Part shown: positions 16,126 to 33,384 of the stretch, in pieces | Layout of the letters: each line of letters starts with the position of its first letter | How positions within the stretch are numbered: position 1 is the first letter of the stretch | From: Candidatus Zhuqueibacterota bacterium | Lineage (GTDB): Bacteria; Zhuqueibacterota; Zhuqueibacteria; Residuimicrobiales; Krinioviventaceae | Reading direction: 5' to 3' | DNA length: 64,000 nt | NCBI GenBank assembly: GCA_016934825.1 | Contig: JAFGSB010000158.1 | Location: 66,842 to 130,841, forward strand | Notes under the pieces: model-generated | What the model was told of the DNA's origin: nothing | Seen by the model: the letters and a program-made list of their open reading frames with translations, nothing else | The model's database searches: none | Made by a program: the position numbers and the translations under genes

Positions 16126-16210
16126 ACCGAGGGATTGTGATCTCTTGTTGCAGGTAAATTGCATAGGGGAAATGAATAATCCGTAGATACACGCGGATAG
16201 GGGATGTTTC

Positions 16211-16277
16211 ACGCAGATACCGCGGATGGAGCAGATACAAAAAAACACAACCTCTGTCATTTCGACCGCAGGGAGAA
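16211..16277. repeat. Partial copy (upstream module plus left arm) of a MITE-like inverted-repeat element
   Basis: CGCAGATACCGCGGAT...CTGTCATTTCGACCGCAGGGAGAA is shared with 16585-16652. Confidence 0.6.
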
Positions 16278-16329
16278 TTTTTGAGTATAATTAAGACACA
16301 TACGAATCACTTGCAATAGAACCGGCTAT

Positions 16330-16386
16330 GGAGTGCATCGCCTTTATGCGATGCGGATCAGCCGTCCATAAAAGGACGGCACTCCG
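16330..16386. repeat. Nested double-hairpin element; its first hairpin is repeated at 16414-16438
   Basis: GGAGTGC[GCATCGC-CTTTAT-GCGATGC]...[CCGTCC-ATAAAAGG-ACGG]GCACTCC. GGAGTGTATCGCCTTTATGCGATGC recurs 84 bp downstream. Confidence 0.55.
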
Positions 16387-16584
16387 TGTGTAAAAACTAA
16401 TTCAAGCATTTTTGGAGTGTATCGCCTTTATGCGATGCAGTTATTTGCCACGCAAAAAAACACCCCGGAGCGTGGTCTCAAACATCATTATCTGAATTAT
16501 TACATATCCGGTCGTCGAGTAAGGCTGTCGGGCACAGCGAGACAGCCTGTACCGGGACGTCCGCTGATGTTGGAAAATGTCTCT

Positions 16585-16730
16585 CGCAGATACCGCGGAT
16601 ATCGCAGATACAATAAAAAGACCACTACTGTCATTTCGACCGCAGGGAGAAATCTTAAAATGTTTTACATGAACTGATACCTCTTCAAGAAACAAGATTT
16701 CTCTTCGCTGCGCTCATCGAAATGACAGAG
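16585..16730. repeat. Full MITE-like element with about 35-bp imperfect terminal inverted repeats
   Basis: CTGTCATTTCGACCGCAGGGAGAAATCTT...AAGATTTCTCTTCGCTGCGCTCATCGAAATGACAG; the arms are reverse complements. Confidence 0.65.
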
Positions 16731-16827
16731 TGGGTTATTTGGATGAAATTTTACAAAATAATGGAAATTTATTATTAGGTTCAGATTGTCTAATTACTGT
16801 GCGTACAAACCAGACAAAACGCAAATT

Positions 16828-16930
16828 CTGTCATTTCGACCGCAGGGAGAAATCTTATTATGTTTTACATGAACTGATACCTCTTTAGGAAACAAGAATT
16901 TTCTTCGCTATGCTCATCGTAATGACGGAG
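16828..16930. repeat. Second full copy of the MITE-like inverted-repeat element
   Basis: About 90% identical to 16628-16730 across roughly 100 bp, including both arms. Confidence 0.65.
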
Positions 16931-17220
16931 CGCCGACGACGCCTTGGTCGTGAGTTATTAATAAAAATACCCGGTTCCGTATTTTCAGGAGGTTCAGCGG
17001 TTAAAGTATTTTCCCTGAAAGGGTTGCTCTATTTATACTCAGAACTTTATAATACTTATCACGTTTTATAATGCAAATACTCTACTGATAAATAAAGATG
17101 AAACTTGTATTAAATGCCCTCGTATTTTATTATTGATGTCGATTATATGTTCTTGCCGCATTATACACAAATCCTTATGAATATTAATTCTCTTTTTATC
17201 ATTAAAATGTCAGAGGATAA

Positions 17221-18105
17221 ATGCAAATTTCTATCAACGATTTAACACAGGTATATAAAAATGGCAATCGGGCCCTGCAAAAGATCAACCTGGAAATCAG
17301 CAGCGGGATGTTCGGACTGTTGGGACCGAACGGCGCGGGGAAAACAACATTGATGCGTATCCTGGTTACGCTGATGAAACCCACAGCCGGCGCCGTCAGT
17401 GTTAACGGTTATGATCTGCAAAGAAACCGGCGGGAGATCCGCTCAATGCTCGGGTATTTACCGCAGGATTTTCAAGTTTTATCCAAATTAAAGACCTGGG
17501 AATTTCTGGATTACGTCGCCAGGCTTGCCGGCCTGAGGAGTAAAAATGAACGAAGCGCGGCTGTTGACGAAATGCTGGAAAATGTGGGTCTTTTCGACGC
17601 GCGTGACCGCAGGGCGACAAAATTATCCGGCGGCATGAAAAGAAGACTAGGGATCGCGCAGGCGCTGATCGGTCATCCGCAAATTGTCATCGTGGATGAA
17701 CCGACAACCGGTCTTGACCCGGAAGAACGTATACGGTTCCGCAATCTGCTTGCCGAACTGAGCCGGAAGGACATTGTTATTATTCTGTCCACCCATATAG
17801 TCGGTGATATTTCCAGCACCTGCATGGATATGGCACTGTTGAATAAAGGCGAGGTCATTTTTAATGACGCTCCGGAAAAACTTGTACAGGAATGCAGGGG
17901 ACATGTATGGCAGATTAACGCCCTGGACAGCGAGTTGGAAGCCATCAAAGAGAAATATCCCGTTATTTCAACCATTCCATCGGAGAACGGCTGGGAAGTG
18001 CAGATCGTCGCCGATAAACTGGCGGACTTTAAAGGTGAACAGATTGAACCCAACCTTGAGCACGCCTATGTTTACCGTATGGAATATGGTTTAAATAACA
18101 AATGA
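17221..18105 (+). CDS. ABC transporter ATP-binding protein (ABC-2 subfamily) with a C-terminal accessory domain
   Basis: Walker A LLGPNGAGKTT, signature LSGGMKRRLGIAQAL, Walker B IVIVDEPTTGLD. Confidence 0.9.
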   Translation: MQISINDLTQVYKNGNRALQKINLEISSGMFGLLGPNGAGKTTLMRILVTLMKPTAGAVSVNGYDLQRNRREIRSMLGYLPQDFQVLSKLKTWEFLDYVARLAGLRSKNERSAAVDEMLENVGLFDARDRRATKLSGGMKRRLGIAQALIGHPQIVIVDEPTTGLDPEERIRFRNLLAELSRKDIVIILSTHIVGDISSTCMDMALLNKGEVIFNDAPEKLVQECRGHVWQINALDSELEAIKEKYPVISTIPSENGWEVQIVADKLADFKGEQIEPNLEHAYVYRMEYGLNNK

Positions 18106-18142: not shown

Positions 18143-21100
18143 ATGACATCATTATATAACATTTGGGTTGTTGCCCGTTATGAAACAAAAATATTATTCA
18201 GAAGCTGGTTTTTCAGGGTACTGGCATTGATCGCCATTGGTATTCTGACCTTTCTGAATATCATTTTTTTTTCCGGCGCCGTTAAAGATGTTCCCTGGGT
18301 TTTAAGAGGTGTTCCCTCATCCATTCCATATTTTAATTTGATGATGTTAAATACCGTTCAGGCCGTATTAACTGTATTTTTGGCCTCGGATTTTCTGAAA
18401 CGGGATGTGAAAACCAATACCACAGAAGTCATTTATATGCGTTCCATGTCCAACGCCGAATATGTGCTGGGTAAAACGGGCGGAATATTAAATATATTTA
18501 TTTTACTGAATTTGATCATTTTGTTTATCGGTGCGGTTATCAATATCGCTTTTTCCGATATCGGTTTTCATTTTATCAATTACATTGTCTATTTTCTGCT
18601 TATCAGTATACCCACAATTATTTTTATTACCGGATTTACATATTTAATCATGATAATCATCCGAAATCAGCCGGTTACGCTGGTTTTAATGGTTGGTTAC
18701 ATATCGCTCTCGTTAATCTATTTACAGCATAAAGCAAATTATATATTTGATATCGTTGCCTTTTATCTGCCGTTATCCTATTCCGATTTTGTCGGCTTTG
18801 ATCAAATTTCAATTATACTTTTACAGCGGGGAATGTACCTGTTTATCGGTCTGTCGTTTATATTTTTAACAATTTTGTTTCTGAAAAGACTGCCGCAGTC
18901 AAAAATTATGCTCAGGCTGGCGCCTGTTCTGTCGGTTATTTTTATGATTACGGCAATATACTTTTGTATAACCAGCCTCGGTGTTTACAGGTCCGGTCAA
19001 TCCCTGCGAACCAATATGACGGCATTAAATGACAGGTATATTAATGAGCCGGCGGTTTCGATAACAGATTGTACGCTTGATTTTGAGCATCTGGGCGATA
19101 CTTTTTCCTGCACGGCAAACCTGAAATTCACCAACCGGGATTCCGTTCCCATAAATTCATATATTTTCAGTCTCAATCCCGGGCTTCAACTGGACAAAGT
19201 TTTACAAAATCAGCAGCAAAAGGAATTTGAGCGGCAATATCATATTATTACCATAAAACCGGAAAGGCCTTTAAATCAGGGCGAGTCCGATTCCCTGATT
19301 TTTGTGTACCGGGGCGCTCCCGATGACAACGCCTGTTACCTTGATATTGATGAACAGAAACGAAGCCGGTCGAATTATATTGTCATGTATAAAGCAGGGA
19401 AAAAGTTCAGCTTTATAACTCCCCAATATGTGCTTCTAACCCGGGAAAATTTATGGTATCCGGTTCCCGGTGTTACACATGGTTCACATCTTTACACAAA
19501 TATTAAAAAGGATTTTATTCGTTTCAAATTAAACGTAAAATTAAAGAGTGATCTTCAACCGGTATCCCAGGGTTCAATGGATAAGATGAGTGACCGTGAA
19601 TTCCGGTTTGTGCCGGAAACCCCGCTGCCGCAAATATCATTAATTATTGGAAACTATAAAAAAATATTTACCACGGTTGACAGTATTGATTATAATCTGT
19701 ATACCCTGCCGAAGCATAATTTTTATTCGCCCTATTTCACGCAAATCGGCGATACGTTGAAATCAATCATCAGCGACGCGAAAAGGGAATATGAAACAAA
19801 ACTCAATCTTGATTATCCTTTTAAGCGGTTATCCATTATTGAGGTGCCCGTACATTATATTGCCTATGACCGTCTTGTTTCGTACCACCAGGAAAACGTA
19901 CAACCGGCGCTGGTATTATTCCCGGAGAATGGGGTCAGTGTTCAGCAAGTCGATTTCAGGGCACAAATACACCGATTCGAAAGAATGGAAAGGCGCATGA
20001 ACCAGACCATTGGTGAAAAGGAAATACAGGCCCGGTTGTTCAACATGTTCGTCAATGTTTTTACGGGCGGCGTTCCCATGTTCAATCCAAACAGGAATAT
20101 TTCTGTAAATTTAAATATATTCCCAAATTATTACACTTATAAAAATGTTGTATATTCCCGGGACTGGCCTGTTTTGAACGCATCCCTTGAAGCCTATCTC
20201 AATAGTAAACTGTCGGAATCCACACCCTTTTTCGCAAGAAACTGGCAGGGAATACTGAATGAAGAAAAAGCCAATCTTGCCTTAAAAACCAGCAGTTTGA
20301 ATGAAATACTCTCCAACCCGGACAACAGGGATATTGTTAATGATGTGCTGGAAAACAAAAGTGAAATGTTGTTCAAATTGCTGACATATGTACTGGGTGA
20401 TGAACAATTCAATACATATTTAACACAATATCTCGACCGGAATCGGTTCACTTCCGTGGATTTCCTGGATTTTGTATCCGGTGTGGAGAACAAATTAAAT
20501 TTTAATTTTTATGATTTTATGCAAAAGTGGTACGGTCAAATCCAAATGCCCGGCTATTATATAGCCAATATCCAGTCATATAAAGTTCTGGACGGCAATA
20601 GAACAAGATACCAGATTCGATTTGATGTATCGAATAATGAAGATATCGACGGGTTGATAACGGTCAATTTTCGTACCAGGGGAGGCGGTGTCCGGGGCCG
20701 GTTTATGGGCGGGGGAGGAGCACGCGGCGAATCGGAACCCGAGCGGATTTATTATATTCAAAAAATGCAGACAAAACAAATCGGCATCCTCTTGGATTCA
20801 CAACCGGGAGCCATAATGATCAATTCACTGGTTTCTTTGAACCTGCCATCCGCAATTGATCGTAGATTTGAAGAATTTGATTTAAATGAAAAAGCCGTTC
20901 CTTTTGAAGGGGAAAAAATTCTGGAAAAGCCCGTAATGCTTTCGCTGCCCAATGAAATTATTGTCGATAATGAAGATGAAGGTTTTACGGTACAGGCGCA
21001 GGATGAGACAAGTCTTTTGAAAAAAATATTCAAAATGAGCAACGGTGATAAAGAAGAATATGTCGGCTTGAATATGTGGCGCGTGCCGAACAACTGGAGC

Positions 21101-21496
21101 AAGACAATTCATTCCGATTTTTATGGGCGCTATGTCCATTCCGCATATTATGTAAAGTCCGGCAATGGTTCCAAAGTGGTAACATGGAATGCCAATATTC
21201 CGGAGAGCGGCCAATATGATGTTTATTGTTATGCAAACACGATTCAGTTCCGGGGAGGACCGGGAAGAGGACGAGGAAGGGGAAGAGAAAGACAACCCAT
21301 GGCGGGCGAAATGCATTATGACGTATATCATGATGACGGTCAGGAAGAAGTGACGCTGGATATCCAATCGGCGCAGGAAGGATGGAATTTTTTAGGAACC
21401 TACTATTTGTCGGCAGGCACTGCCCAGGTCCGGTTATCGGATAAATCAAACGCACGAATGGTCGTTGCCGACGCTGTCAAGTGGGTAAAGCATTAA
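18143..21496 (+). CDS. ABC-2 family permease fused to a large M1-aminopeptidase-like extracytoplasmic domain (no HEXXH zinc motif found)
   Basis: N-terminal 300-aa multi-TM ABC-2-like region, then about 800 aa containing the M1-like segment LTYVLGDEQFNTYLTQYLDRNRFTSVDFLDFV. Two Gly/Arg-rich low-complexity inserts (GGGVRGRFMGGGGARG and GGPGRGRGRGRER). Confidence 0.7.
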   Translation: MTSLYNIWVVARYETKILFRSWFFRVLALIAIGILTFLNIIFFSGAVKDVPWVLRGVPSSIPYFNLMMLNTVQAVLTVFLASDFLKRDVKTNTTEVIYMRSMSNAEYVLGKTGGILNIFILLNLIILFIGAVINIAFSDIGFHFINYIVYFLLISIPTIIFITGFTYLIMIIIRNQPVTLVLMVGYISLSLIYLQHKANYIFDIVAFYLPLSYSDFVGFDQISIILLQRGMYLFIGLSFIFLTILFLKRLPQSKIMLRLAPVLSVIFMITAIYFCITSLGVYRSGQSLRTNMTALNDRYINEPAVSITDCTLDFEHLGDTFSCTANLKFTNRDSVPINSYIFSLNPGLQLDKVLQNQQQKEFERQYHIITIKPERPLNQGESDSLIFVYRGAPDDNACYLDIDEQKRSRSNYIVMYKAGKKFSFITPQYVLLTRENLWYPVPGVTHGSHLYTNIKKDFIRFKLNVKLKSDLQPVSQGSMDKMSDREFRFVPETPLPQISLIIGNYKKIFTTVDSIDYNLYTLPKHNFYSPYFTQIGDTLKSIISDAKREYETKLNLDYPFKRLSIIEVPVHYIAYDRLVSYHQENVQPALVLFPENGVSVQQVDFRAQIHRFERMERRMNQTIGEKEIQARLFNMFVNVFTGGVPMFNPNRNISVNLNIFPNYYTYKNVVYSRDWPVLNASLEAYLNSKLSESTPFFARNWQGILNEEKANLALKTSSLNEILSNPDNRDIVNDVLENKSEMLFKLLTYVLGDEQFNTYLTQYLDRNRFTSVDFLDFVSGVENKLNFNFYDFMQKWYGQIQMPGYYIANIQSYKVLDGNRTRYQIRFDVSNNEDIDGLITVNFRTRGGGVRGRFMGGGGARGESEPERIYYIQKMQTKQIGILLDSQPGAIMINSLVSLNLPSAIDRRFEEFDLNEKAVPFEGEKILEKPVMLSLPNEIIVDNEDEGFTVQAQDETSLLKKIFKMSNGDKEEYVGLNMWRVPNNWSKTIHSDFYGRYVHSAYYVKSGNGSKVVTWNANIPESGQYDVYCYANTIQFRGGPGRGRGRGRERQPMAGEMHYDVYHDDGQEEVTLDIQSAQEGWNFLGTYYLSAGTAQVRLSDKSNARMVVADAVKWVKH

Positions 21497-21504
21497 AAAT
21501 ATGA

Positions 21505-22983
21505 GTGAATATTATGAACGTGAGAAAAACTTTAATTTTATTTTATCTTGTCGGGTTATTTGGTTTAAAATCTTTTGCACAGCAAACTTTGACTCTTGAA
21601 GATGCATTACGTATCGCGATGGAAAACAGCCCGGATATAAAACGTTCCATGTTAAACCTGGAAAGAAGCAGGCAATCATTGAGAGCCCAGCAGGCCGCCC
21701 TGAAATCGAAATTCAGTTTATCCGTAACGCCATTTGATTTCACGCGAATCCGTCAATTCAATACATTTTTCAACACATGGAACACGAACGATTCAAAATC
21801 ATCATCAGGCAATCTCAGCGTAACACAGCCCATCAAGTGGACCGACGGCACGCTGAGTCTGATCAATAGATTCGAATGGCAGGACGCGTACAGTGAATAC
21901 AGTAATGAGCGTAATAAAACTTTTAACAATAATTTATATCTGAGTTATAATCAACCTTTATTTACATATAATCAAACCAGGCTTGACCTGCGGGAACTGG
22001 AACTGGATTTTGAGAACACCTATCTGAGTTACGCTTTACAGAAATTGGGCCTTGAGTACCAGGTTTCCTTAAACTTTTATAATGTATATAAAAATAAAAT
22101 GAGTTATCAAATCGCCGTCGAGGAATTTAATAACCAGGACCAGAGTCTTCAGATTATAAAGAACAAGGTTGACGCCGGTTTATCGGCAAAAGAAGAATTG
22201 TACCAGGCGGAATTGAATCTCGCCACCAGTAAATCAACCGTCCAGAATTCTCAGGTCACCCTGGAAAATTCACTGGACGAATTCAAGCGTCTGACCGGTA
22301 TTTCCTTAATGGAGGACATTGATGTGATCGCCGATGTTTCGCATCAACCGGTTAACGTCGATATTCAAAAAGCTTTGGATACGGGACTGGGAAAAAGAAT
22401 GGAACTGCAGCAAAGGAATATTGACATAGAAAATTCGCTGGCAAATCTCACCCGGACAAAGGCATATAATGAATTCAAGGGTGATTTAACGTTAACCTAT
22501 GGTATTATCGGCACCAATGAAGAATATGAACATATATATGATGAGGCAACCAGAAATCAAAAAGTGTCGTTATCGTTTGAGATCCCTTTATTTGATTGGG
22601 GAGAACGGAATGCCCGGATCAAGGCGGCGGAGGCTACATTGAATAATCAGCATTTGTCGATGGAAAATCAAAAAAATGATATTATTATCGGTGTCAGGCA
22701 GGCGGTCCGGGACCTGCAAAACCTTGAAGTGCAGATTGAAATCGCACGCCAGAACGTTTCAAACGCGCAACTGACCTATGAGATTAAACTGGAACAATAT
22801 AAAAACGGTGATCTGACCAGTATGGACCTGAATTTGTATCAAATTCAGTTATCGGACAGGAAAACCGGTCTGGTTAATGCCCTGATAAATTATAAACTGG
22901 CTTTATTAAATTTGAAAATTGAATCCATGTGGGATTTTGTAAGAAACGAACCGGTCATCCCGGATGTGAAAAGTTTGGATTAA
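21505..22983 (+). CDS. tolC: TolC-family outer-membrane efflux protein
   Basis: Signal peptide; two tandem OEP repeats with typical coiled-coil and LxxALxNN motifs. Confidence 0.85.
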   Translation: MNIMNVRKTLILFYLVGLFGLKSFAQQTLTLEDALRIAMENSPDIKRSMLNLERSRQSLRAQQAALKSKFSLSVTPFDFTRIRQFNTFFNTWNTNDSKSSSGNLSVTQPIKWTDGTLSLINRFEWQDAYSEYSNERNKTFNNNLYLSYNQPLFTYNQTRLDLRELELDFENTYLSYALQKLGLEYQVSLNFYNVYKNKMSYQIAVEEFNNQDQSLQIIKNKVDAGLSAKEELYQAELNLATSKSTVQNSQVTLENSLDEFKRLTGISLMEDIDVIADVSHQPVNVDIQKALDTGLGKRMELQQRNIDIENSLANLTRTKAYNEFKGDLTLTYGIIGTNEEYEHIYDEATRNQKVSLSFEIPLFDWGERNARIKAAEATLNNQHLSMENQKNDIIIGVRQAVRDLQNLEVQIEIARQNVSNAQLTYEIKLEQYKNGDLTSMDLNLYQIQLSDRKTGLVNALINYKLALLNLKIESMWDFVRNEPVIPDVKSLD

Positions 22984-23005: not shown

Positions 23006-23383
23006 TTGTTCAAAGTGTTACTTGTCGGTGCGGGAGGTTTCGTCGGTTCGGTTCTGCGCTATTCCATGAGCGGACTGGTGCATCGGATGTTGAAAAATGC
23101 GTGGTTTCCCTATGGAACTTTAACGGTAAATTTACTGGGTTGTTTTTTAATCGGTTTTTTCAATGGCCTGGCAGAATCAAAACAAATTTTTTATGCGGAA
23201 ACAAGGCTTGTATTATTTATCGGAGTTTTAGGCGGATTTACGACCTTTTCAACTTTTAGTTACGAGTCATTCAGCTTTTTGCGGGATGGACAGCTTGTAC
23301 CCGCTTTTTGGAATGTAATAATTCATGTGGTTTTTGGTTTGAGTGCGGTTTATTTTGGCGATTTTGTGTCACGTTTATTTTAG
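23006..23383 (+). CDS. crcB: Fluoride ion channel CrcB/FluC
   Basis: GAGGFVGSVLRY and GFNGLA...GGFTTFSTFS motifs of CrcB; 125 aa. Confidence 0.9.
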   Translation: MFKVLLVGAGGFVGSVLRYSMSGLVHRMLKNAWFPYGTLTVNLLGCFLIGFFNGLAESKQIFYAETRLVLFIGVLGGFTTFSTFSYESFSFLRDGQLVPAFWNVIIHVVFGLSAVYFGDFVSRLF

Positions 23384-23392: not shown

Positions 23393-23734
23393 ATGAAGCT
23401 ACCCGACCAGGGACATTTGTTACGTATATTTATCGGTGAGAGCGATAAACATGAACACATGCCCCTGTATGAATGGATTGTCCGAAAGGCCCGGGAATGT
23501 GGTCTTGCCGGCGCTACGGTTATCAGGGGACTGCAGGGTTTCGGTCCCACCAGCCGGGTGTACACAACTAAAATTCTGCGTTTATCGGAAGATCTGCCGA
23601 TCATTATCGAAATTGTCGACACCATAGAAAAAATAGATAACTTTTGGCCCGTCATTCAGGATGTTATTCCTGAAGGGCTGGTCACCATCGAAAAAGTCCA
23701 GATTAAATTCTATCGAGGCGGCAAAATCTCCTGA
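23393..23734 (+). CDS. DUF190 domain protein (P-II-like fold, crcB-associated)
   Basis: HLLRIFIGESDKHEHMPLYEWIV...GATVIRGLQGFG is typical of DUF190, which is often adjacent to crcB. Confidence 0.75.
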   Translation: MKLPDQGHLLRIFIGESDKHEHMPLYEWIVRKARECGLAGATVIRGLQGFGPTSRVYTTKILRLSEDLPIIIEIVDTIEKIDNFWPVIQDVIPEGLVTIEKVQIKFYRGGKIS

Positions 23735-23778
23735 CAATGTCAATTCATTTAACTTATATAGCAATGAGGTAAAAACCT

Positions 23779-24827
23779 TGAAAAAATTAATTTTATTACT
23801 GATAATCCTGATATTCTTTTTGGCTTGCAACAGACAGGATTCCAATGTTGACCTTCAGATTGCTATTCCCGTTTCGGTCGAAGAAATAAAATATAAGCCG
23901 ATTGAGGAATTTGTAACGGCAACCGGAACCGTATATGCAATTCAGGAAGTTGACCTGAAAGCGGAAACCCCGGGATTTTATCGTCTGGCTGAAAATAAAA
24001 CAACCGGGAGACCTTTTACTCTTGGTGAACAGATCAAAAAAGGTGAGATCATCATATACCTTGATAACCCCGAGCTGGAAAACAGCATAAAAATTGAATC
24101 CCAGAAGCTGAACCTGGACATATCGGAACGGGAATTCGAAAAGCAAAAATCTTTATATGAAAAGGGCGGCGTGACGCTGCGGGAATTAAAAAATGCCGAG
24201 ATAAGCTTTATCGACGCACAATATAACTATGAAAGCGCATTGTTACAGCTTGCCAAAACAAAAGTTATTGCACCTTTTGACGGTATTATTATTGATTTGC
24301 CTTATCACACGGAAGGGACACGTGTAACGACGGATTCGCGAATGGTTCAGCTTATGAATTATAAAAGATTATATTCGGAATTCAACTTGCCGGGGAAAGA
24401 CCTGCCGCAAATCAAGGCCGATCAGCGGGTCAGGGTCATGAATTATTCCGTGCCGGATGATACGCTGTGGGGAAAGGTGACCCAGGTCGCGCCGGCCTTT
24501 GATCCGGACAGCCGGTCTTTTAAAACGTCGATCGAAGTGGATAATTCGCAAATGATTTTCCGTCCGGGTATGTTTATCAAGGCCGAAATTATCGTCGCGC
24601 ATGAAGACAGCGCTATTGTTATACCCAAAGATATTATACTGGCACAGGGTGATGAAAAATGGGTATATACCGTTGTAAAGGGCGCCGCCGACCGACGCAG
24701 GATAACTACCGGTATTGAAAATCCCCTTGAGGTACAGGTTCTGGAGGGATTAAAAGTAGAAGAACGACTGGTTGTGAAAGGTTTTGAAACCTTACAGCGT
24801 AATTCCAAAGTAAAAATAATTCGATAA
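23779..24827 (+). CDS. Efflux RND periplasmic adaptor subunit (HlyD/MFP family) lipoprotein
   Basis: Lipobox FLACN; coiled-coil, barrel-sandwich and beta-barrel regions. The ORF track start (23661) overlaps DUF190, so an internal TTG at 23779 is the likely start. Confidence 0.8.
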
Positions 24828-24854: not shown

Positions 24855-27800
24855 ATGGAAAATATTACAAAATTTTCGGTAAAGTATCCGGTAACGATTT
24901 TAATGCTGATATTGGCTGTGTTGTTACTGGGTTACATTTCATTTAAAAAACTGGGGATAGACCTGTTCCCGGATTTAAACAATCCCCGGATATTTGTTGA
25001 AATAAAAGCCGGAGAACGCCCCCCGGAGGAGATTGAAAAACAGTTTGTTGAAAATATCGAATCCCTGGCAATCCGGCAGCGTAACGCGATACAGGTTTCG
25101 TCGATATCCCGGGTCGGCTCGGCGCAAATTACCGTTGAATATACCTGGGAAACCGACATGGACGAGGCGTTTCTGGATTTGCAAAAAGCCCTGACCGGAT
25201 ACAGCCAGAACAGCGATATTGACAATATAAGTATTTCGCGGCATGATCCCAATTCGGCGCCGGTTATGCTGGTTGGTTTTTCGAATCCGCAGATTACCGA
25301 TATGGATGAATTGCGCCGGGTCGCTGAAAATTATATACGAAATGAATTGATCCGTCTGGAGGGAGTTGCCGAGGTAGAATTGCTGGGTTATGAAGTCAAA
25401 GAGGCCGTCATCGAAACAAACAATTATCTGCTTGAGGCTTATGGTTTAACAACAGATGAAGTGACAAACCGGGTTATGAATTTTAACCGTAATATGTCGG
25501 GCGGTTCAATCGAGGAGATGGGGCGAAAGTATATCATCAAGGGGGTCGGAGAAATAAAATCCCTGCAGGACATAGAAAATGTTATCGTGACTTATAAAAA
25601 TGCGGAACAAAATGTTTCCGCAGGCAATGAAGCGATATCTAAACGAATTCCGGTATTTTTAAAAGATATCGCGACGGTCAGATTAATAAACAAGGATCCG
25701 GAAAATATCATACATGTAAACGGCAACAGGTGTATGGCGCTGGCAATTTACAAAGAAACAAAGTACAATACGGTTAAAGCGTCAACAACCCTCCTGGATA
25801 AGCTAAATGAACTGAGAAAAGCCCTGCCCGGCTACGAATTGTTTGTTATCAGCAACCAGGGAGAGTTTATCACCAAATCGATAAACGAAGTCAAGCAAAC
25901 AGCGTTGATCGGGATTCTGCTGGCCGTGCTGGTGCTGTTCGTATTTTTACGCCGTATCGGGGTTACGGTTATTATCAGTCTTGCGATCCCGATTTCCGTG
26001 GTAGCTACATTTAATCTCTTGTATTTCAAAGGATTAACATTGAATATTATGACCCTGGGCGGACTCGCGCTCGGAGCGGGTATGCTGGTTGATAATGCCA
26101 TAATCGTCATGGAAAATATTTACCGGAACCTGGAAGAAGGAATGTCCTTAAAAGAAGCCGCCATTACCGGAACGGCGCGGGTGGGAGGGGCCATAACGGC
26201 TTCGACTTTGACGACAATTGTCGTTTTTTTACCCATTGTCTATTTGCATGGAACCGCTGGAGAATTATTCAAGGACCAGGCCTGGACGGTCGCTTTTTCT
26301 TTGTTATCGTCGCTGGTCGTGGCGATTCTGGTTATTCCGATGTTGAGTGTCTGGTTGTTGAAAAGGGAAGAAAATTATAAATATCAAACCATTACATTTC
26401 CAAAATACAGAACCTTTCTGGACAGAATGCTGAATAAATCGGGAATGATCATTCTGGGCGCGATAGCGCTCGTTATTATTGCAGTACTGCTTGTGCCTAT
26501 TGTGGGCAGCGAGTTTATCCCCAAAACGGATTCCGATGAGTTCTCAATTAATCTAAAACTGCCGGAAGGGACCGAATTAAGGCGCACGGAAAGTACCGTC
26601 AGGAATATTGAGGATATGGTCAAACAATTGTTTGGCGATAATATTTTAACGGTTTACAGTAAAATAGGACCGTCTGCAAGTCTTACCGGCATCGACAATG
26701 AGGCTTATGAGGATGAAAATACGGCAACCGTATTGATCAAGCTGGATAAAAACCGGAAAATCGGCAGCGAGGAGATTATTAACCGGCTGTCTTTATCTAT
26801 CGGCGCCATTCCCGATATTGAGGCGGAATTTATTCAGGAACAAACCGAACTGCAAACCACATTAGGGACGGATGCGGCTCCAATTGTGCTGGAAATAAAG
26901 GGGAACGACCTAAAGGTGATCCAGAATTTGACCGAACAGGCCGCTGAAAAACTGGAAAATATGAATGATTTATTCAATATTGCTACCAGTTTCGACGAAG
27001 GCCGGCCGGAAGTCGATGTGGTGATTGACAGGGTCCGGGCTGGATTATTAAATGTAAGCATCAATACGATAAGCGATCAGCTTACAAGCCAATTGGCCGG
27101 TCAGGAAGCCGGGCAATGGCAAAACGATGGAGAATTGCAGGATATAATCGTTAAATTGCCCAAAGTTGATATTAAGCAGTTATCGGGTATTACCCTTCAA
27201 TCCGGTGATCAGAAAATCAGCCTGGACGACGTGACGGATATAAGAATAACCCAGACAACCAATGAAATATACCGCAGGAACCAGACCCGGATCGGGAAGA
27301 TAACCGCTCATATCAGGTCGGATAAACCATTTGATTCTATCGTTAAGCGTATAGATGATGAAATGAGCACTATTACCTATCCACCCGACTACAAGTATGA
27401 AATTACCGGCGAAGAACTGAAAAGGAGGGAAGCGTTCGATAATTTGAAATTCGCGCTTTTATTATCGATCATTCTTGTGTATATGGTTATGGCGTCGCAA
27501 TTCGAATCGCTTGTTCATCCCTTTATTATTTTATTTACCATACCGCTGGCCGGAGTCGGTTCCGTGTTTCTGTTTTTTATATTGGGAAAAAGTTTTAATG
27601 TAATGGCATATATCGGAATCATCATGCTTGCGGGTATAGCGGTGAATGATTCGATTATTCTGATCGATGCGATAAACCAGTTAAAGAGCCAGGGACGGAA
27701 ACAGCGGGACGCGATCCTGACCGCCGCGCAGTGGAGAATTCGTCCCATTATTATGACCAGTTTGACCACCATTCTCGCGCTTTTTCCTCTGACCATCGGT

Positions 27801-27944
27801 TTCGGTGAGGGCGCTTCTTTACGCGCGCCGCTGGCGATGGCTGTTATCGGAGGTTTGATCAGTTCGACAATTCTGACATTAATTGTTATACCCTGTGTGT
27901 ATTGGCTGGTTGACAGATTAACTCATCCTGCTTTTGTTGACTAA
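24855..27944 (+). CDS. Efflux RND transporter permease (AcrB/HAE family)
   Basis: 1029 aa, 12-TM topology with two large periplasmic loops; conserved TM4 and TM10 regions. Confidence 0.9.
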   Translation: MENITKFSVKYPVTILMLILAVLLLGYISFKKLGIDLFPDLNNPRIFVEIKAGERPPEEIEKQFVENIESLAIRQRNAIQVSSISRVGSAQITVEYTWETDMDEAFLDLQKALTGYSQNSDIDNISISRHDPNSAPVMLVGFSNPQITDMDELRRVAENYIRNELIRLEGVAEVELLGYEVKEAVIETNNYLLEAYGLTTDEVTNRVMNFNRNMSGGSIEEMGRKYIIKGVGEIKSLQDIENVIVTYKNAEQNVSAGNEAISKRIPVFLKDIATVRLINKDPENIIHVNGNRCMALAIYKETKYNTVKASTTLLDKLNELRKALPGYELFVISNQGEFITKSINEVKQTALIGILLAVLVLFVFLRRIGVTVIISLAIPISVVATFNLLYFKGLTLNIMTLGGLALGAGMLVDNAIIVMENIYRNLEEGMSLKEAAITGTARVGGAITASTLTTIVVFLPIVYLHGTAGELFKDQAWTVAFSLLSSLVVAILVIPMLSVWLLKREENYKYQTITFPKYRTFLDRMLNKSGMIILGAIALVIIAVLLVPIVGSEFIPKTDSDEFSINLKLPEGTELRRTESTVRNIEDMVKQLFGDNILTVYSKIGPSASLTGIDNEAYEDENTATVLIKLDKNRKIGSEEIINRLSLSIGAIPDIEAEFIQEQTELQTTLGTDAAPIVLEIKGNDLKVIQNLTEQAAEKLENMNDLFNIATSFDEGRPEVDVVIDRVRAGLLNVSINTISDQLTSQLAGQEAGQWQNDGELQDIIVKLPKVDIKQLSGITLQSGDQKISLDDVTDIRITQTTNEIYRRNQTRIGKITAHIRSDKPFDSIVKRIDDEMSTITYPPDYKYEITGEELKRREAFDNLKFALLLSIILVYMVMASQFESLVHPFIILFTIPLAGVGSVFLFFILGKSFNVMAYIGIIMLAGIAVNDSIILIDAINQLKSQGRKQRDAILTAAQWRIRPIIMTSLTTILALFPLTIGFGEGASLRAPLAMAVIGGLISSTILTLIVIPCVYWLVDRLTHPAFVD

Positions 27945-30900
27945 AATTAGCGGACATATGAATTTTTTCGGATCTTTAATAAAACGTAAAGTTTTTATCA
28001 GTATGCTTTTTGTGGGGCTGTGCCTTTTGGGTATTGTCTCCTATAAACAGCTTCCGGTTGAATTATTCCCCAACGCCGAACTCCCTTTTTTAATAGTTCA
28101 GGTCAGTTCCGTCCAGGAAATGGACCCGGAGTATCTTGAAAAACAGGCCATTGTGCCCGTCGAAGGAGTTATTACAACACTGGACGGGATTGAAAAGATT
28201 GAATCATACGTGGAAAGACGCCGGGGGATTGTTTTTGTATATTTCAATCAGAAAACCAAAATTAAATATGCCTATTTAAAGCTCGAAGAAAAAATAAATT
28301 CGATCAAAGCGTCGCTTGGCGATGAATTTTTTGTAACGGTTTTTAAGGTCGATACGGATCAGATTGCCAATATGTTCATGACCCTGCAGGTCCGCGGCAG
28401 CGGCGGTTTGAACAGGGTGAGGGAGGTTATCGATCAAAAAGTGACCCCGGAGTTACAAAATATCGACGGCATCGCCAATGTGGAGATCTTTGGCGGACAG
28501 CAAAAATCAATTGAGATCATTCTGGATGAACAGGCATGCCGCGCCCATGGAATTACCCCCGCGACAATCCGTTCCATAATTTCAGGTAATAATAAATATA
28601 AATCATTTGCCGGTAAAGTATACAGTGAAGATAAATATTATTTTGTCAATGTTACGGCCGATTATGGAAATGTCGAAGATATTGAAAATATTATTGTGGA
28701 CAGCAACGGCCCGGTTTTTCTAAAAGATATCGCGGATGTGTATTTTGGCGTTAAAGAACAGACAACCATCAGCCGCGTTAACGGCAAGGAAGCCATAACC
28801 ATTCAACTCATAAGAGATACGCAGGTAAATCTGATTGATCTATCGCATAAAACAAAAAGGATTATCAAACAGTTAAATGAAAATCTGGCGCCGGATGATG
28901 TAGAAGTTGTGATTCAAAGTGATTCCGCCGAAATTGTGGAAAAAAATATTCATCTCATCATACAGCTTGCTCTGGTCGGCGGGTTGCTGGCCGTCGTCAT
29001 CCTCTGGATATTTTTACGTAACATGCGGCTGGTTTTGATCATTGCATTATCCATGCCTGTTTCCATTTTCACCGCATTTAATTTTTTCTATGCGTTCGGT
29101 ATAACCATCAATAGTCTGACCCTTGTCGGAATGGCGCTGGCAATCGGTATGCTGCTGGATAACAGCGTGGTGGTATTGGAAAATATATACCGAATCTTTG
29201 CCAATTACAAGAATCCCGATCAGGCGGTTGTCCAGGGAACCGGTGAGGTATGGCGGTCCATACTGGCAGCCACATTGACCACAATTACGGTTTTTCTCCC
29301 GTTTGCCTTTGCGTCCAACTTTTTAATCAAATTGCTTGGCCGTCATATCGGCGTATCCATTATTTCAACCCTCGGAGTTTCGCTTGTTATTGCATTTTTA
29401 CTCATCCCTATGGCCGCATATATAATTTTAAAGAATTTAAAAAAGGATTCTCCCGTTAATTTTCAATTCGTTTCGCATAATAACAGGCTGTTGCAAATTT
29501 ATAATGTTGTGTTAAAATCGTGCCTTCGTTTTCCCGCCAGAACGATAATCGGTACAATTTTTTTATTTTTTGTAAGTTTGATGATCTGTCTTGCCCTCAG
29601 TATAAATATACCTCGGGAAACGGAAGTTAAGGAATTTAATCTGTACTTGACCATGCCGCGCGGTTCAACCCTGGAATCGACCGATGCGGCAACGGCCGAA
29701 CTCGAAAAACTGCTGGAGAATATAAAGGAAAAAGATGAGATCATCAGCAAAATATATGAAGAGGAATCAATTGTAACCATAAAATTAAAGGATAATTATT
29801 ATAATATTGATAACCGGTCTATACCGCAAATCAAGGAAAAGTTAGAAAAAACCATTAATGATTTTCGCGTGGCGGATGTCAGTTTTGACCAGCCCCAGTC
29901 GGGAGGACGTTTCAGGGGCGGGGCGGGACAAAACCCGGGCCTCGGTCTCGAAAATCTGCTGGGTATCGGCAGCCAGAACGAGCGGGTTGTGATTAAGGGC
30001 AATGATTTCGAAAAGATGCGAAATATCGCTGATGATATTCGAGATTATATTGCCGATCTGACAACCGTTAGTAATACGAATATCAATATGTCCGACGACC
30101 GCCCGGAAATTCAATTGTTATTAGATAAACAATTATTAAGTCAATTCAATGTTTCGTTGAATGCCATCGCCGGCGAGTTATCAACATTTGAAAATGAGTT
30201 CTCATCTAATATTAAATTCAAACAGAATACCGAAGAATATGATATTATCATTAAAACCAATAATGAAAAACAAAAGTCTTTCGATGATCTGCAAAATATT
30301 CGTATCCCGTCTGAAACCGGCGGAGAATACGAACTGGACAACCTCAGCCGTATTATTTACTCGCAGGGCATTTCCGGGATCAATCGTGTCAACCAGGAAA
30401 AACAAATAGAAATTACCTATAGATTTATCAGCGAGGTAACCGCGTCAAAGGAGTATCTGAATTCGGCGAGAAGCGAAATCGACCAGATTATCGCGAATCT
30501 GAACCTGCCGTCCGGAATAGCCGTCGAGGTCATTCATGACAGCAGTGAACTGCAGGAATTTTATTTTTTGATTGGCGCTACGTTTATATTAATTTTTATG
30601 ATCCTCGCATCCGTTTTCGAATCATTATCGACGCCGTTTGTAATTATGTTTACCATTCCGCTGGCGGCGATTGGCTCCCTGTGGGCGCTGATCCTGACCG
30701 GGAACTCTATACTGAATGCCAACACGTTGATCGGATTTATTATTTTGCTGGGGGTTGTCGTGAATAACGGTATTATTTATATCGACTATACGCGAATATT
30801 GATCCGCAAAAAATATAAAAGGTCCCGCGCGTTAATGATGGCAGGACGGGCGCGGGTCCGGCCGATTTTGATCACCGCTATTACGACCATCATTGCCATG

Positions 30901-32634
30901 CTGCCGCTGGCAATGGGAAAATCCGAATACGTCGCCCAAATCGGCGCTCCGTTTGCTATAACGGTGATTGGCGGCTTGTCGCTCAGCACATTGTTTACAC
31001 TTGTTTTTATACCGACGTTTTATTCCGGTCTTGATACGGCCCTGAGATGGTTATATCAATTGAACTGGAAAATCAAACTATTGCAGATAATCGCATTTGT
31101 AACAGGGTGCGTGCTTGTATATTATCATGTTGAAAGTTTCCTGTGGCGTTTTATCGATCTGCTTTTGTTATTGCTGGTTATACCTTCAATAACCCTGTTC
31201 ATTTTTAAGAGTCTGCGACGCGCCAGGGCCGATTATATAAAACCGGACCGGGAATTGAAAATCAAAGTCCGGCAGCTTGTAAAAATATACGATGATTACA
31301 GCCGATTTAGCCGGGAATGGAACAAGGGGAAAAAAATACGGGAAAGAGCGGAAATCAGCAAGGAATATAAAACCCGGAAAGATATTGAACATCTTTTATG
31401 GGAATTGCCGCTGCTTATTTTTCTTTTCTACTTTACCTATCTTTATTTGAGAAGCTATTTCTGGATGTTTGTTCTTTCTCATTTTGTTTATTTTTATGTC
31501 TTTTACCTGCTCGGACCGTTCCTCAGTCAATTAAGGAACGGGTTGCTGGCAAAAAGAATCTATTCGTTGGTTTATTGGGGTGTGCCGTTATTGAATTTGA
31601 TCTACTTCTACATTCGCTGGAAAAATATCCCGGCGTTGATTTTCATCGCCGTAATCTGGACGCTGGCCCTGGCAGTGTATATCACATCCAATAAACTTCA
31701 CCGGGAAAAGGTGGATATTGTACGTCTGGGTGGAAAGTTTAAAAAGATTCGGCAGAATTTTTATCGGCTGGTGCAAATAATACCCGTAATCGGACGTAAA
31801 AAGTCTCCGTTTAAAGCCCTGGACGGGATTTCACTGGAGATTGGCAGCGGTATGTTCGGTCTGCTAGGACCGAACGGCGCCGGTAAAACAACATTGATGA
31901 GAATAATATGCGGCATCCTTGAACAGAGCCGCGGCAAGATTTGGGTAAACGATATCGCTCTTGAAGAAAAACGCGAGGAATTACAGGGTTTGATCGGGTA
32001 CTTACCCCAGGAATTCGGCATGTACGAAAATATGACCGCATTCGAATTTCTGGATTACCAGGCATTATTAAAGGGTATCCTTGATAATGAGCAGCGGGAA
32101 AAACGTATAGACTATGTCCTGTCCGCCGTACACATGCAGGAAAGCCGGAACCAGAAAATCGAATCTTTTTCCGGGGGCATGAAACAGCGCATCGGTATCG
32201 CGCAGACATTGTTGCATTTACCGCGCATACTGGTCGTGGATGAACCCACTGCAGGTCTCGATCCGAGGGAACGGATCCGTTTTCGTAATTTGCTGGTCGA
32301 ACTCGGACGCGAGCGGATTGTCATTTTTTCGACACATATCATCGAAGATATTGCCAGTTCCTGCAACAAAGTTGCGGTTTTGAACCTGGGTAAACTCGTA
32401 TATCTTGGCACGCCGACACAAATGGTGAAAATTGCGCAAAATAATGTCTGGCATTTTTATTTAAGTGCGGATGAATTTAAAGAAAAAAGCGCTGATTTGA
32501 CAATTGTACACCATATGCGTATTAAAGACAGAATTCGAATCCGCTGCCTGGCAAATGAAAAACCGTATCCCGACGCGGTACAGGTGAAACCGACGCTTGA
32601 AGACGCCTATTTGTGGTTGTTACGTAATGAATAA
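27934..32634 (+). CDS. RND transporter permease fused in frame to four extra TM helices and a C-terminal ABC ATPase domain
   Basis: Residues 1 to about 1035 form a complete AcrB-like RND. A roughly 200-aa basic/amphipathic linker with about 4 TM helices follows. Residues from about 1290 form an ABC ATPase (GLLGPNGAGKTT, FSGGMKQRIGIAQTL, ILVVDEPTAGLD) about 50% identical to ORF 17221. Single uninterrupted ORF; its start overlaps the upstream RND stop. Confidence 0.85.
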   Translation: MLTKISGHMNFFGSLIKRKVFISMLFVGLCLLGIVSYKQLPVELFPNAELPFLIVQVSSVQEMDPEYLEKQAIVPVEGVITTLDGIEKIESYVERRRGIVFVYFNQKTKIKYAYLKLEEKINSIKASLGDEFFVTVFKVDTDQIANMFMTLQVRGSGGLNRVREVIDQKVTPELQNIDGIANVEIFGGQQKSIEIILDEQACRAHGITPATIRSIISGNNKYKSFAGKVYSEDKYYFVNVTADYGNVEDIENIIVDSNGPVFLKDIADVYFGVKEQTTISRVNGKEAITIQLIRDTQVNLIDLSHKTKRIIKQLNENLAPDDVEVVIQSDSAEIVEKNIHLIIQLALVGGLLAVVILWIFLRNMRLVLIIALSMPVSIFTAFNFFYAFGITINSLTLVGMALAIGMLLDNSVVVLENIYRIFANYKNPDQAVVQGTGEVWRSILAATLTTITVFLPFAFASNFLIKLLGRHIGVSIISTLGVSLVIAFLLIPMAAYIILKNLKKDSPVNFQFVSHNNRLLQIYNVVLKSCLRFPARTIIGTIFLFFVSLMICLALSINIPRETEVKEFNLYLTMPRGSTLESTDAATAELEKLLENIKEKDEIISKIYEEESIVTIKLKDNYYNIDNRSIPQIKEKLEKTINDFRVADVSFDQPQSGGRFRGGAGQNPGLGLENLLGIGSQNERVVIKGNDFEKMRNIADDIRDYIADLTTVSNTNINMSDDRPEIQLLLDKQLLSQFNVSLNAIAGELSTFENEFSSNIKFKQNTEEYDIIIKTNNEKQKSFDDLQNIRIPSETGGEYELDNLSRIIYSQGISGINRVNQEKQIEITYRFISEVTASKEYLNSARSEIDQIIANLNLPSGIAVEVIHDSSELQEFYFLIGATFILIFMILASVFESLSTPFVIMFTIPLAAIGSLWALILTGNSILNANTLIGFIILLGVVVNNGIIYIDYTRILIRKKYKRSRALMMAGRARVRPILITAITTIIAMLPLAMGKSEYVAQIGAPFAITVIGGLSLSTLFTLVFIPTFYSGLDTALRWLYQLNWKIKLLQIIAFVTGCVLVYYHVESFLWRFIDLLLLLLVIPSITLFIFKSLRRARADYIKPDRELKIKVRQLVKIYDDYSRFSREWNKGKKIRERAEISKEYKTRKDIEHLLWELPLLIFLFYFTYLYLRSYFWMFVLSHFVYFYVFYLLGPFLSQLRNGLLAKRIYSLVYWGVPLLNLIYFYIRWKNIPALIFIAVIWTLALAVYITSNKLHREKVDIVRLGGKFKKIRQNFYRLVQIIPVIGRKKSPFKALDGISLEIGSGMFGLLGPNGAGKTTLMRIICGILEQSRGKIWVNDIALEEKREELQGLIGYLPQEFGMYENMTAFEFLDYQALLKGILDNEQREKRIDYVLSAVHMQESRNQKIESFSGGMKQRIGIAQTLLHLPRILVVDEPTAGLDPRERIRFRNLLVELGRERIVIFSTHIIEDIASSCNKVAVLNLGKLVYLGTPTQMVKIAQNNVWHFYLSADEFKEKSADLTIVHHMRIKDRIRIRCLANEKPYPDAVQVKPTLEDAYLWLLRNE

Positions 32635-32658: not shown

Positions 32659-33384
32659 ATGAAACCGGACACATTATCAGTCAGAAAAATTTTATCTATT
32701 ATTATAAAATTAACAAGATATAATTTAAAAATTATCTTTGGCAACATATTTATATATTTTTTACTTGGCTCAATCGGCTTTTACCTGTTAATTTCGGTCA
32801 TTACTTTTTTCGATTCAAGCATTACCCCCACTGCTGCAATCGTATACTACCTGCTGTTGTTTCCGGGATTATTATTAATTTTTTACCCCACGACCTTTGG
32901 TATCCAGTATGACAGCGACACCAGGATGCTGGAAGTACTTTTTGGTATACCGGATTATCGTTACAAAGTGTGGCTGGTGCGATTGGCAATTATTTATGTT
33001 CTTGTTTTTTGTATATTGATTGTGCTTGCCTTTTTCGGATTGATCGCATTTACACGATTTTCAATCCTGAACATGGTCTTTCAACTCATGTTCCCGATAT
33101 TTTTTATCGGCAGTCTTGCCTTTATGACGTCAACTCTGGTCAGAAACGGGTACGGAGCAATGGTAATTTTAATTATAGTCGGAATGGTTTTCTGGGTATT
33201 GAGCGGCATCCTGGTTGAAAGCCAGTGGAATTTATTTCTCAATCCGTTTCGTGTACCCGAAAATGTAAATGAAATAATCTGGGCGGATATTAAAGTCAAA
33301 AACCGGCTTTACATTCTTTCGGGTACAATCCTGATGCTTTTATTCGGACTTTTTAATATGCAAAAACGGGAAAAATTTGTCTGA
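32659..33384 (+). CDS. Small 6-TM ABC-2-like permease (putative partner of the fused ABC domain)
   Basis: 241-aa polytopic protein; N-terminus resembles the ABC-2 permease N-terminus of ORF 18143. Confidence 0.5.
   Translation: MKPDTLSVRKILSIIIKLTRYNLKIIFGNIFIYFLLGSIGFYLLISVITFFDSSITPTAAIVYYLLLFPGLLLIFYPTTFGIQYDSDTRMLEVLFGIPDYRYKVWLVRLAIIYVLVFCILIVLAFFGLIAFTRFSILNMVFQLMFPIFFIGSLAFMTSTLVRNGYGAMVILIIVGMVFWVLSGILVESQWNLFLNPFRVPENVNEIIWADIKVKNRLYILSGTILMLLFGLFNMQKREKFV

Follow-up and report, generated by a model that had tools for sequence, protein, structure and literature searches.

The 64,000-nucleotide stretch of DNA analysed here (the window), part of contig JAFGSB010000158.1 from a Candidatus Zhuqueibacterota bacterium, contains at 18143..21496 (+ strand) an open reading frame (ORF) of 1117 amino acids encoding an ATP-binding cassette (ABC) permease of the ABC-2 type, fused to a zinc-less module that resembles the M1 aminopeptidases and to a C-terminal Golvesin_C domain. 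The gene lies in a conserved cluster with an ABC ATPase and a tripartite efflux set of the resistance-nodulation-division (RND) type, and the M1 catalytic residues have been replaced throughout its family. We put a probability of about 0.5 on the reading that the permease is a non-catalytic binding and force-transmitting subunit of a NosFY-like ABC motor, working with the co-encoded pump. Coordinates are window positions unless a locus is named, and the cluster genes and the domains of the permease all lie on the + strand.

The ORF product is 100% identical to the NCBI hypothetical protein JXQ31_18530, from a metagenome-assembled genome (MAG) of candidate division KSB1. A pseudogene or frameshift artefact was rejected because the full-length ORF is kept end to end down to 31% identity. 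For structure prediction, an AlphaFold2 model of the full protein was built from 116 homologs (at least 40% identity), giving a mean pLDDT (per-residue confidence) of 88.5 and a pTM (predicted TM-score) of 0.86. Seven membrane helices (aa 1–299; 18143..19039) are followed in this model by a β-sandwich equivalent to M1 domain I (aa 300–530; 19040..19732), an α/β domain that appears to be the remnant of a thermolysin-like catalytic domain (aa 531–800; 19733..20542) and a second β-sandwich (aa 801–955; 20543..21007), probably the equivalent of M1 domain III; both sandwich assignments are based on the predicted strands and on the extent of structural alignments. A short linker then leads into a jelly roll at 986–1116. 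Runs of three or more residues with pLDDT below 50 occur only at 91–94, in a cytoplasmic loop, at 965–967, in the linker, and at 848–863 and 1042–1044, in two Gly/Arg-rich stretches.

The membrane domain comprises an N-terminal interface helix, a six-helix ABC-2 core and a long seventh helix (aa 254–299), after which come ~820 residues. Counted over the family, Lys and Arg in the loops fit the positive-inside rule with the N terminus in and the C terminus out; the part beyond helix 7 should therefore be periplasmic. A model of the membrane domain alone (aa 1–302; pTM 0.77) was searched against the PDB with Foldseek, and the best match was NosY (7o0z, 7o0y and 7znq; E 2e-4, probability 1.0, TM-score ~0.5). 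Further matches were to PmtCD (E 5e-3), the ABCG family (ABCG25 and ABCG5/8), TarG, Wzm and CcmB. On this model the membrane domain is of the type V (ABC-2) fold, with its six-helix core and N-terminal interface helix, in keeping with the ABC-2 permease that a first-pass annotation, made from the sequence alone, had assigned to the N terminus. Among 41 diverse homologs, ABC2_membrane_2 was matched by 13 (best 1e-9) and ABC2_membrane_4 by 3.

The membrane domain is also the most conserved part of the protein (majority-residue frequency 0.67), with peaks at the N-terminal helix and at the cytoplasmic loop between transmembrane helices (TM) 2 and 3, which carries the motif ASDFLKRDxKxxTTEVIYMRSM. 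In type V transporters these two elements touch the ATPase. An ABC ATPase of the DrrA/GldA/NosF-like kind (17221..18105; Pfam ABC_tran 1.6e-32) is encoded 37 nt upstream of the permease gene; against NCBIfam it matched drrA (1.5e-61) and GldA (4.8e-55), neither reaching the cut-off. It keeps the Walker A, Q-loop, signature, Walker B and H-loop motifs and is likely the motor of the permease. Because the ATPase motifs are intact and the cytoplasmic coupling elements are the most conserved, the two proteins would be expected to form a working ABC module.

The relation of the ectodomain to M1 enzymes, as judged from the model and profiles, is decisive at the level of the fold, significant at the level of the family and marginal for the single sequence. 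Foldseek comparison of the model with the PDB returned ERAP1, IRAP, ERAP2, PSA and TIFF3 (E 1e-14 to 2e-17, with ERAP1, IRAP and TIFF3 at ~1e-17), over ~650 alignment columns at 11–12% identity, an extent corresponding to M1 domains I, II and III. A family profile made from the 116 sequences matched the M1 structures ColAP (3cia, 2.7e-7) and aminopeptidase A (4kx7, 1.4e-5), as well as TIFF3, ERAP1, PSA and PepN, and gave weak matches to domain I of the M1 enzyme 6a8z. With the query alone, Pfam PF01433 reached 26.9 bits (cut-off 27.7) and aligned only over its positions 135–218 (aa 714–796), and 33 of the 41 family members matched it at E ≤ 0.01. The M1-like ectodomain proposed in the first-pass annotation is thus upheld, with the qualification that the hidden Markov model check it called for falls short of threshold for the query and is significant for the family profile.

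One label in that annotation has to be changed. The segment GDEQFNTYLTQYLDRNRFTSVDFLDFV, at aa 752–778, had been described as the C-terminal segment of an M1 protein; since the PF01433 match covers only the end of the catalytic domain, it is the C-terminal part of that domain. The helical M1 domain IV is absent, the model being all β after aa 800 (sandwich, then Golvesin_C jelly roll). Two further conserved features were noted in the flanking sandwiches, namely WYP at aa 438–440 in the domain I-like sandwich and the invariant motif VDNEDxGF (aa 941–948), with which the second sandwich closes. A genuine M1 gene that could serve as an alignment reference was sought in the DNA of the collected homolog loci and none was found.

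Loss of the zinc site could be followed across the family. HEXXH, HXXEH and GXMEN occur nowhere in the 1117-aa ORF, and there is no His between residues 611 and 989. HEXXH was likewise absent from the M1 site in the 120 closest homologs and in 146 more distant representatives reaching down to 31% identity; three HE..H matches among the latter sit at residues 315–405, in domain I. The first-pass remark that the HEXXH...E motif is missing from the ORF therefore extends to both sets of homologs. In the profile alignment with ColAP, 'LNEGF', which contains the Glu that is the third zinc ligand, stands opposite 'LNASL', so that the Glu corresponds to A680, a column occupied by V, A, I, M or T across the family. 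For the catalytic Tyr, human LTA4H was used (reference sequence 100% identical to 1hs6_A): in an hhalign alignment to the family profile that covered aa 733–805 only, at 12.6% probability, Y383 of 'PYEKG' stands opposite position 737, which is K, R or E, and the Lys that follows the Tyr in LTA4H is retained as K739 (114/116).

The degenerate zinc-site segment, as placed by the ColAP profile alignment, spans aa 655–688 (20105..20206) and reads VNLNIFPNYYTYKNVVYSRDWPVLNASLEAYLNS in place of HEXXH...WLNEGFA. At the family level, the motif (Y/F)x(I/V)FPNYYxFxN...SxxWPxxNxALExYL replaces the HEXXHxWFGN...WLNEGFAxY of M1 enzymes. When the alignment was extended by eye, anchored on the ColAP alignment and on predicted secondary structure, both His ligands fell at positions held by hydrophobic residues, Pro or Tyr. 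The five candidate ligand columns together contain 3 His, 1 Glu and 1 Asp over the 116 sequences, and P661 is present in 111 of them. In the AlphaFold2 model, the stretch where the zinc helix would be expected (aa 639–659) is mostly coil with reduced confidence, and is preceded by two extra helices (605–638). As judged from these alignments, canonical M1 zinc chemistry is lost across the family. With four defining features absent, the protein is not an M1 peptidase family member in a functional sense; its descent from that family is clear, and it belongs both to the ABC-2 fold class and to the Golvesin_C domain family.

The former catalytic domain has nevertheless kept a set of strongly conserved residues. 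E567, Q587, P588 and E595 are invariant (116/116), and E683 is found in 115 of the 116 sequences. E584, within 'QEN' at 583–585, is E or D in 115/116, and by-eye matching suggests a possible relic of GXMEN. E567, E584 and E595 are kept in four paralogs at 30–31% identity, and the divergent set of 61 sequences shows no exception at E567 or E595; H525 is invariant in the core homologs but is not kept in divergent members. Because E567, E595, Q587, P588, E683 and K739 are invariant or nearly so, a conserved functional site of some kind probably persists in this domain. The description of the ectodomain as catalytically dead is accordingly supported in one part, the zinc ligands and catalytic Tyr being gone; 'dead' itself is a reasonable inference rather than a demonstrated property, and the invariant residues mark a site that has persisted.

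In place of the helical M1 domain IV stands a Golvesin_C jelly roll of the CBM6/35/36-like kind (aa 986–1117; 21098..21493), a domain missing from the first-pass description of the ORF. Pfam PF25275 matched the query with 66.5 bits against a cut-off of 31.6 (E 3e-18, aa ~986–1116) and was found in 41 of 41 family members, and the family profile matched the C-terminal module of the Paenibacillus xanthan lyase 6f2p at 5.8e-8. The InterPro domain CBM6-CBM35-CBM36_like_2 is common to golvesin and xanthan lyase, and isolated modules of this type from the Bacteroides lectins Cbeg4 and Cbeg5 bind defined glycans (PMC9166713). By analogy, the Golvesin_C domain of the permease may be of the same kind as the Cbeg4/5 modules.

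Two Gly/Arg-rich patches interrupt the ectodomain. The first, GGGVRGRFMGGGGARG, lies at aa 847–862 (nt 20681–20728) and is 77% GC, and the second, GGPGRGRGRGRER, lies at aa 1038–1050 (nt 21254–21292) and is 59% GC, in a gene that is 40.3% GC as a whole; both had been picked out in the first-pass annotation as GC-rich inserts in a low-GC gene. Their high GC follows from the Gly and Arg codons, and an origin in foreign DNA was rejected for this reason. On the model both are predicted to be disordered loops, loop 1 (aa 846–867; 20678..20743) and loop 2 (aa 1032–1055; 21236..21307), which is inserted within Golvesin_C. Across the 116 homologs, low-complexity loops occupy both positions, with lengths of 19–45 residues for loop 1 and 15–40 for loop 2. 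Gly makes up 50% of the loop 1 core, followed by Arg (14%), Phe (10%), Pro (7%) and Met (6%); the loop 2 core has Arg at 30% and Gly at 29%. Against a family background with Gly at 6.6% and Arg at 5.5%, the loop composition is far from chance.

Loop 2 splits the Golvesin_C Pfam match in two and corresponds to a gap in 6f2p, and on this sequence evidence it is taken to be a true insertion, as had been supposed for the Gly/Arg stretches. A check of orthologs, also proposed at the outset, showed that members of the core clade carry these inserts at matching positions. In the most divergent representatives both loops are short and ordinary, and four divergent paralogs found outside the usual cluster are without Gly/Arg loops. 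The loops thus appear specific to the cluster-associated clade, a restriction that hints, from few examples, at contact with a cluster partner or with a substrate.

To gauge the size of the family, a HMMER search over 1.84 billion representatives was carried out, which gave 680 proteins at E ≤ 1e-30, or ~680 clusters at 50% identity. The best 150 of the 680 homologs are ~1100 aa long or fragments and aligned end to end. In a scan of species-representative genomes, at least 555 species carry the gene. Carriers occur in KSB1, Krumholzibacteriota, Latescibacterota, Prolixibacteraceae and Melioribacteraceae, and include cultured Prolixibacteraceae (Prolixibacter, Mariniphaga, Maribellus, Sunxiuqinia, Mangrovibacterium and Gaoshiqia). 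Public names given to family members conflict: hypothetical protein, xanthan lyase, golvesin C-terminal-like domain-containing protein, ABC transporter permease subunit, M1 family aminopeptidase and NosY-type permease are all in use, and no NCBIfam model covers the protein.

The four divergent paralogs (30–31% identity) have the same full-length architecture and lie outside the RND cluster (loci L087, 152–13372, and L088, 10001–13402). In one case, a lone ATPase gene precedes three copies on the same contig, and a BlaI/BlaR1-like repressor and sensor pair separates copies 2 and 3; the other is an orphan copy from the same metagenome sample as the cluster-associated homolog P0006. Duplication was also observed in locus L019 (9007–22690), from a MAG recorded as 'archaeon', where a tandem ATPase–permease–ATPase–permease arrangement precedes the outer-membrane channel and adaptor genes; most of the Gly and Arg content is gone there from both loops of the second permease copy. 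Two adjacent permease paralogs, P0054 and P0103, are present on a Gemmatimonadota contig.

The permease gene is the second of seven in a cluster with the order ABC ATPase, permease, TolC-like outer-membrane channel (OEP), periplasmic adaptor or membrane fusion protein (MFP), RND pump 1 (RND1), RND pump 2 fused to an ABC ATPase (RND2), and a small membrane protein. The order ATPase, permease, OEP, MFP, RND and a ~1570-aa ACR_tran plus ABC_tran protein was found in KSB1-like, Krumholzibacteriota and unclassified genomes, and the window is alike. Synteny was counted among 79 loci: the ATPase is directly upstream of the permease in 69 of 71 and the OEP directly downstream in 69 of 71, and OEP, MFP, RND1 and RND2 are all downstream in 51 of the 53 whose sequence extends far enough, from several distant phyla. 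Gaps between cluster genes are 9–40 nt. In three distant genomes the cluster ends at the small membrane protein, with unrelated genes beyond. This downstream order in 51 of 53 loci, together with the shared cluster boundary, argues for a functional tie between the permease and the pump. The conserved operon, like Golvesin_C, had no place in the first-pass annotation, and both alter the view of the protein's function.

In the window, the OEP gene (21505..22983; Pfam OEP 2.5e-44) starts 9 nt 3' of the permease. The MFP is listed at 23661..24827 (HlyD_D23 6.4e-19; TIGR01730 RND_mfp 186.7 bits, cut-off 94.9); because the listed start at 23661 overlaps a DUF190 gene, the true start is probably internal, just ahead of a lipoprotein-like signal, KKLILLLIILIFFLAC. 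RND1 (24855..27944; 1029 aa; ACR_tran 5.7e-215) is followed by RND2 (27934..32634; 1566 aa), in which a complete RND protein (ACR_tran aa 15–1031) is joined through a linker with ~5–6 extra membrane helices to an ABC ATPase domain with intact nucleotide-binding motifs (ABC_tran aa 1297–1440). A tripartite RND set is thereby present, consisting of the OEP, an adaptor above the RND_mfp cut-off and two ACR_tran proteins. Neither RND protein can be assigned to the heavy-metal or the multidrug class; both are under the CzcA cut-off and score higher on multidrug models.

More than 120 full-length homolog clusters of the RND–ABC fusion were found, at 56–90% identity and always in the same cluster position; a description of RND–ABC fusions was sought in the literature and none was found. 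The free ATPase and the ATPase domain of RND2 are paralogs at 41% identity, and RND1 and RND2 are distant paralogs at 29%. The small protein closing the cluster (32659..33384; 241 aa) has ~6 predicted helices in its translation and is 50–56% identical to the gene in the same position in three distant genomes, across phyla; it had no Pfam or NCBIfam match and no detectable similarity to the membrane domain of the permease.

These observations can be assembled into a working model in which the adjacent ATPase would hydrolyse ATP and pass the resulting motion, through the N-terminal interface helix and the TM2–TM3 cytoplasmic loop, to the membrane helices. The long seventh helix would then relay this motion to the periplasmic module. 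There, the M1-derived part (domains I–III), having lost its zinc site and catalytic Tyr, would do no canonical metallopeptidase work, and the invariant, mostly acidic residues of the former catalytic domain may form a ligand- or partner-binding site. Golvesin_C would probably hold a glycan, for example cell-wall, lipopolysaccharide or exopolysaccharide material, and the two disordered Gly/Arg loops could offer flexible, positively charged contacts. Together with the TolC-like channel, the adaptor and the two RND pumps, the complex would make up an envelope-spanning export machine in which the permease acts as receptor and force transmitter. If NosDFY and MacB are a guide, what ATP hydrolysis moves would be the periplasmic module, not necessarily a solute across the inner membrane. 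Of all this, the analysis establishes the architecture, the loss of the catalytic residues, the conservation and the synteny; non-catalytic binding, mechanical coupling and cooperation with the RND pump are inferred.

Several points weigh against this model of a non-catalytic, force-transmitting subunit. The query alone is below the Pfam thresholds for both ABC2_membrane and Peptidase_M1, and for ABC2_membrane there was no match even at E ≤ 5. The equivalence of Golvesin_C with IPR033803 is drawn from shared members, golvesin and xanthan lyase. Membership of an operon speaks for co-function, not for physical contact, and the four paralogs outside the RND cluster mean that the fold itself needs no pump. 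The invariant acidic residues, moreover, could equally form a new catalytic or metal site. The ectodomain would then still be an enzyme, in which E567, E584, E595, E683, H525 and K739 form a hydrolytic or metal-dependent site in the old M1 cleft that acts on a periplasmic peptide or glycopeptide, with the pump expelling the products. The invariance of E567, E595, Q587 and P588 and near-invariance of E683, their persistence in paralogs at ~30% identity and the possible GXMEN Glu remnant in 'QEN' would suit such a site, but all four canonical M1 catalytic residues are exchanged for non-ligand residues in the whole family, the expected HEXXH-helix region is mostly coil at lower confidence, and we know of no M1 homolog that is active without the zinc site; we regard this outcome as unlikely. 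The same residues enter into a NosDFY-like role in metal handling, by which acidic and His residues of the ectodomain would pass a metal ion to or from a heavy-metal-exporting RND pump. NosY is the best structural match of the membrane domain, RND1 scores similarly on the CusA/CzcA model (433 bits), the adaptor weakly matches CzcB/CusB models, and the acidic residues and H525 are invariant in the core set. Against this, neither RND protein reaches the CzcA family cut-off and both score higher on multidrug models, no nos, cus or czc genes or metallochaperones were found in any cluster examined, H525 is lost in divergent members and a carbohydrate-binding type of domain would be unexpected in a metal system, all of which makes metal handling quite improbable.

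The paralogs that share the architecture away from any RND genes, and the fact that PmtCD and other ABC-2 exporters are true transporters, would also suit an ordinary ABC-2 exporter with its own substrate, whose ectodomain is only a chaperone or anchor and whose location beside the RND genes reflects co-regulation alone. This is hard to reconcile with an order of ATPase, permease, OEP, MFP, RND and RND–ABC fusion kept in 51 of 53 loci from distant phyla with gaps of 9–40 nt, and with Gly/Arg loops that occur only in the cluster-associated clade, and we consider an independent exporter doubtful. The first-pass annotation had also offered a ruler role, taken here to mean that the ectodomain gauges polymer length or periplasmic width. 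All that speaks for it is how large the ectodomain is and how long the seventh helix; neither fold, conservation nor gene context points to length measurement, the cluster holds no polymerase or chain-length genes, and the idea is extremely improbable. A further reading goes beyond cooperation and takes the seven genes to encode one hybrid machine, in which an RND trimer is tethered through the RND2 linker and ATPase domain to an ABC-2 complex consisting of the free ATPase with the permease and/or the small membrane protein. ATP and proton-motive force would be coupled in this single envelope-spanning exporter, with the M1 module and the sugar-binding domain as receptor and the Gly/Arg loops as pump contacts; we think it speculative and not probable.

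Some features around the cluster were noted in passing. A CrcB fluoride-channel gene (23006–23383, +) and the DUF190 gene (23393–23734, +) sit between the OEP and adaptor genes, an insertion seen in KSB1-like genomes only (also in L001, L008 and L062) and not in other phyla. Upstream of the operon, 16126–17220 is a 1.1-kb ORF-poor spacer, compared with ~144 nt in the closest complete genome (L001). CTGTCATTTCGACCGCAGGGAGAA occurs in it three times without mismatch, where chance would give no copy; the spacer also has both copies of a 115-nt direct repeat and two further families of short repeats. It resembles a group of small intergenic elements of a repetitive or mobile kind, and an Rfam search of the spacer gave no match. 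Before it, 13155–16125 (+) encodes a CCG/Fe-S oxidoreductase subunit, an α/β hydrolase and a LOG-like 'lysine decarboxylase' family protein. These genes are syntenic with the closest KSB1-like genomes (L001, L005 and L062) and not with other phyla, and because of this limited synteny they are placed outside the conserved cluster. Beyond the cluster, a lysine riboswitch aptamer (33760–33941, +; Rfam RF00168, 114 bits, E 9e-30) lies upstream of an ORF at 34023–35027.

If the reading of the permease as a binding and force-transmitting subunit is true, it would be the first bacterial M1 pseudopeptidase that we have found described, and the first fused to a transporter, a protease fold having been reused as the periplasmic working end of an ABC motor. 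A literature search for the permease family, for ABC-2/M1 fusions and for bacterial or transporter-fused M1 pseudopeptidases found no paper, the M1 pseudopeptidases that were found all being eukaryotic. A correct description of a family of ~680 clusters in at least 555 species would mend many contradictory annotations. The RND–ABC fusion in the cluster raises the question whether ATP- and proton-driven export are joined in one machine, and the cultured carriers make genetics and biochemistry feasible.

Among known systems, the best match of the membrane domain is with NosFY, or NosDFY(L), from nitrous-oxide reductase maturation (7o0y, 7o0z and 7znq). Muller et al. reportedly described in 2022 that the NosDFY ABC-2 motor drives a periplasmic protein. 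The likeness is that an ABC-2 motor, with an ATPase of the DrrA/NosF type, works for a large periplasmic protein atop the permease. NosD, however, is a separate β-helix protein, whereas the M1-like ectodomain is covalently attached here and an extra seventh helix is present; NosD, NosL and NosZ partners were absent from the window cluster and from six distant clusters, and a TolC-like channel, adaptor and RND pumps are found nearby instead of nos genes. With M1 aminopeptidases (ERAP1, IRAP, LTA4H, ColAP, TIFF3 and PepN) the ectodomain shares the fold of domains I–III and, in the last third of the catalytic domain, a sequence similarity that takes in the 'KG' of YxKG and the next helix. It differs in lacking HEXXH, the Glu ligand, the catalytic Tyr and GXMEN, in a ~50-residue insertion before the former zinc helix, in the replacement of domain IV by Golvesin_C and in its fusion to an ABC permease. 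Use of an M1 fold for binding or scaffolding is shared with the eukaryotic pseudopeptidases Tma108, TAF2 and Drosophila 'gone early' (PMC11266112, PMC6672047, PMC4242634), of which Tma108 binds rather than cleaves (PMC11266112); these proteins are soluble or nuclear and belong to an unrelated context.

In MacAB-TolC and in Escherichia coli YbhGFSR, too, the genes of an ABC motor accompany those of an MFP and a TolC-like channel. The MacB periplasmic domain pushes periplasmic substrates outward. A MacB-type topology is ruled out for the permease, in which seven helices precede an ectodomain that is C-terminal to TM7, whereas in MacB there are four helices and the periplasmic domain is inserted between TM1 and TM2. 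In YbhGFSR an ABC-2 system is paired with an adaptor (PMC7190983); compared with both systems, the present cluster has two RND pumps in addition, and one of these is joined to an ABC ATPase. By its Pfam match and its homology to the 6f2p C terminus, the last domain of the permease is a clear member of the Golvesin_C group; unlike the modules of 6f2p and Cbeg4/5, it carries an Arg/Gly-rich insertion of 15–40 residues, and the protein that bears it is a subunit of a transporter instead of a secreted enzyme or lectin.

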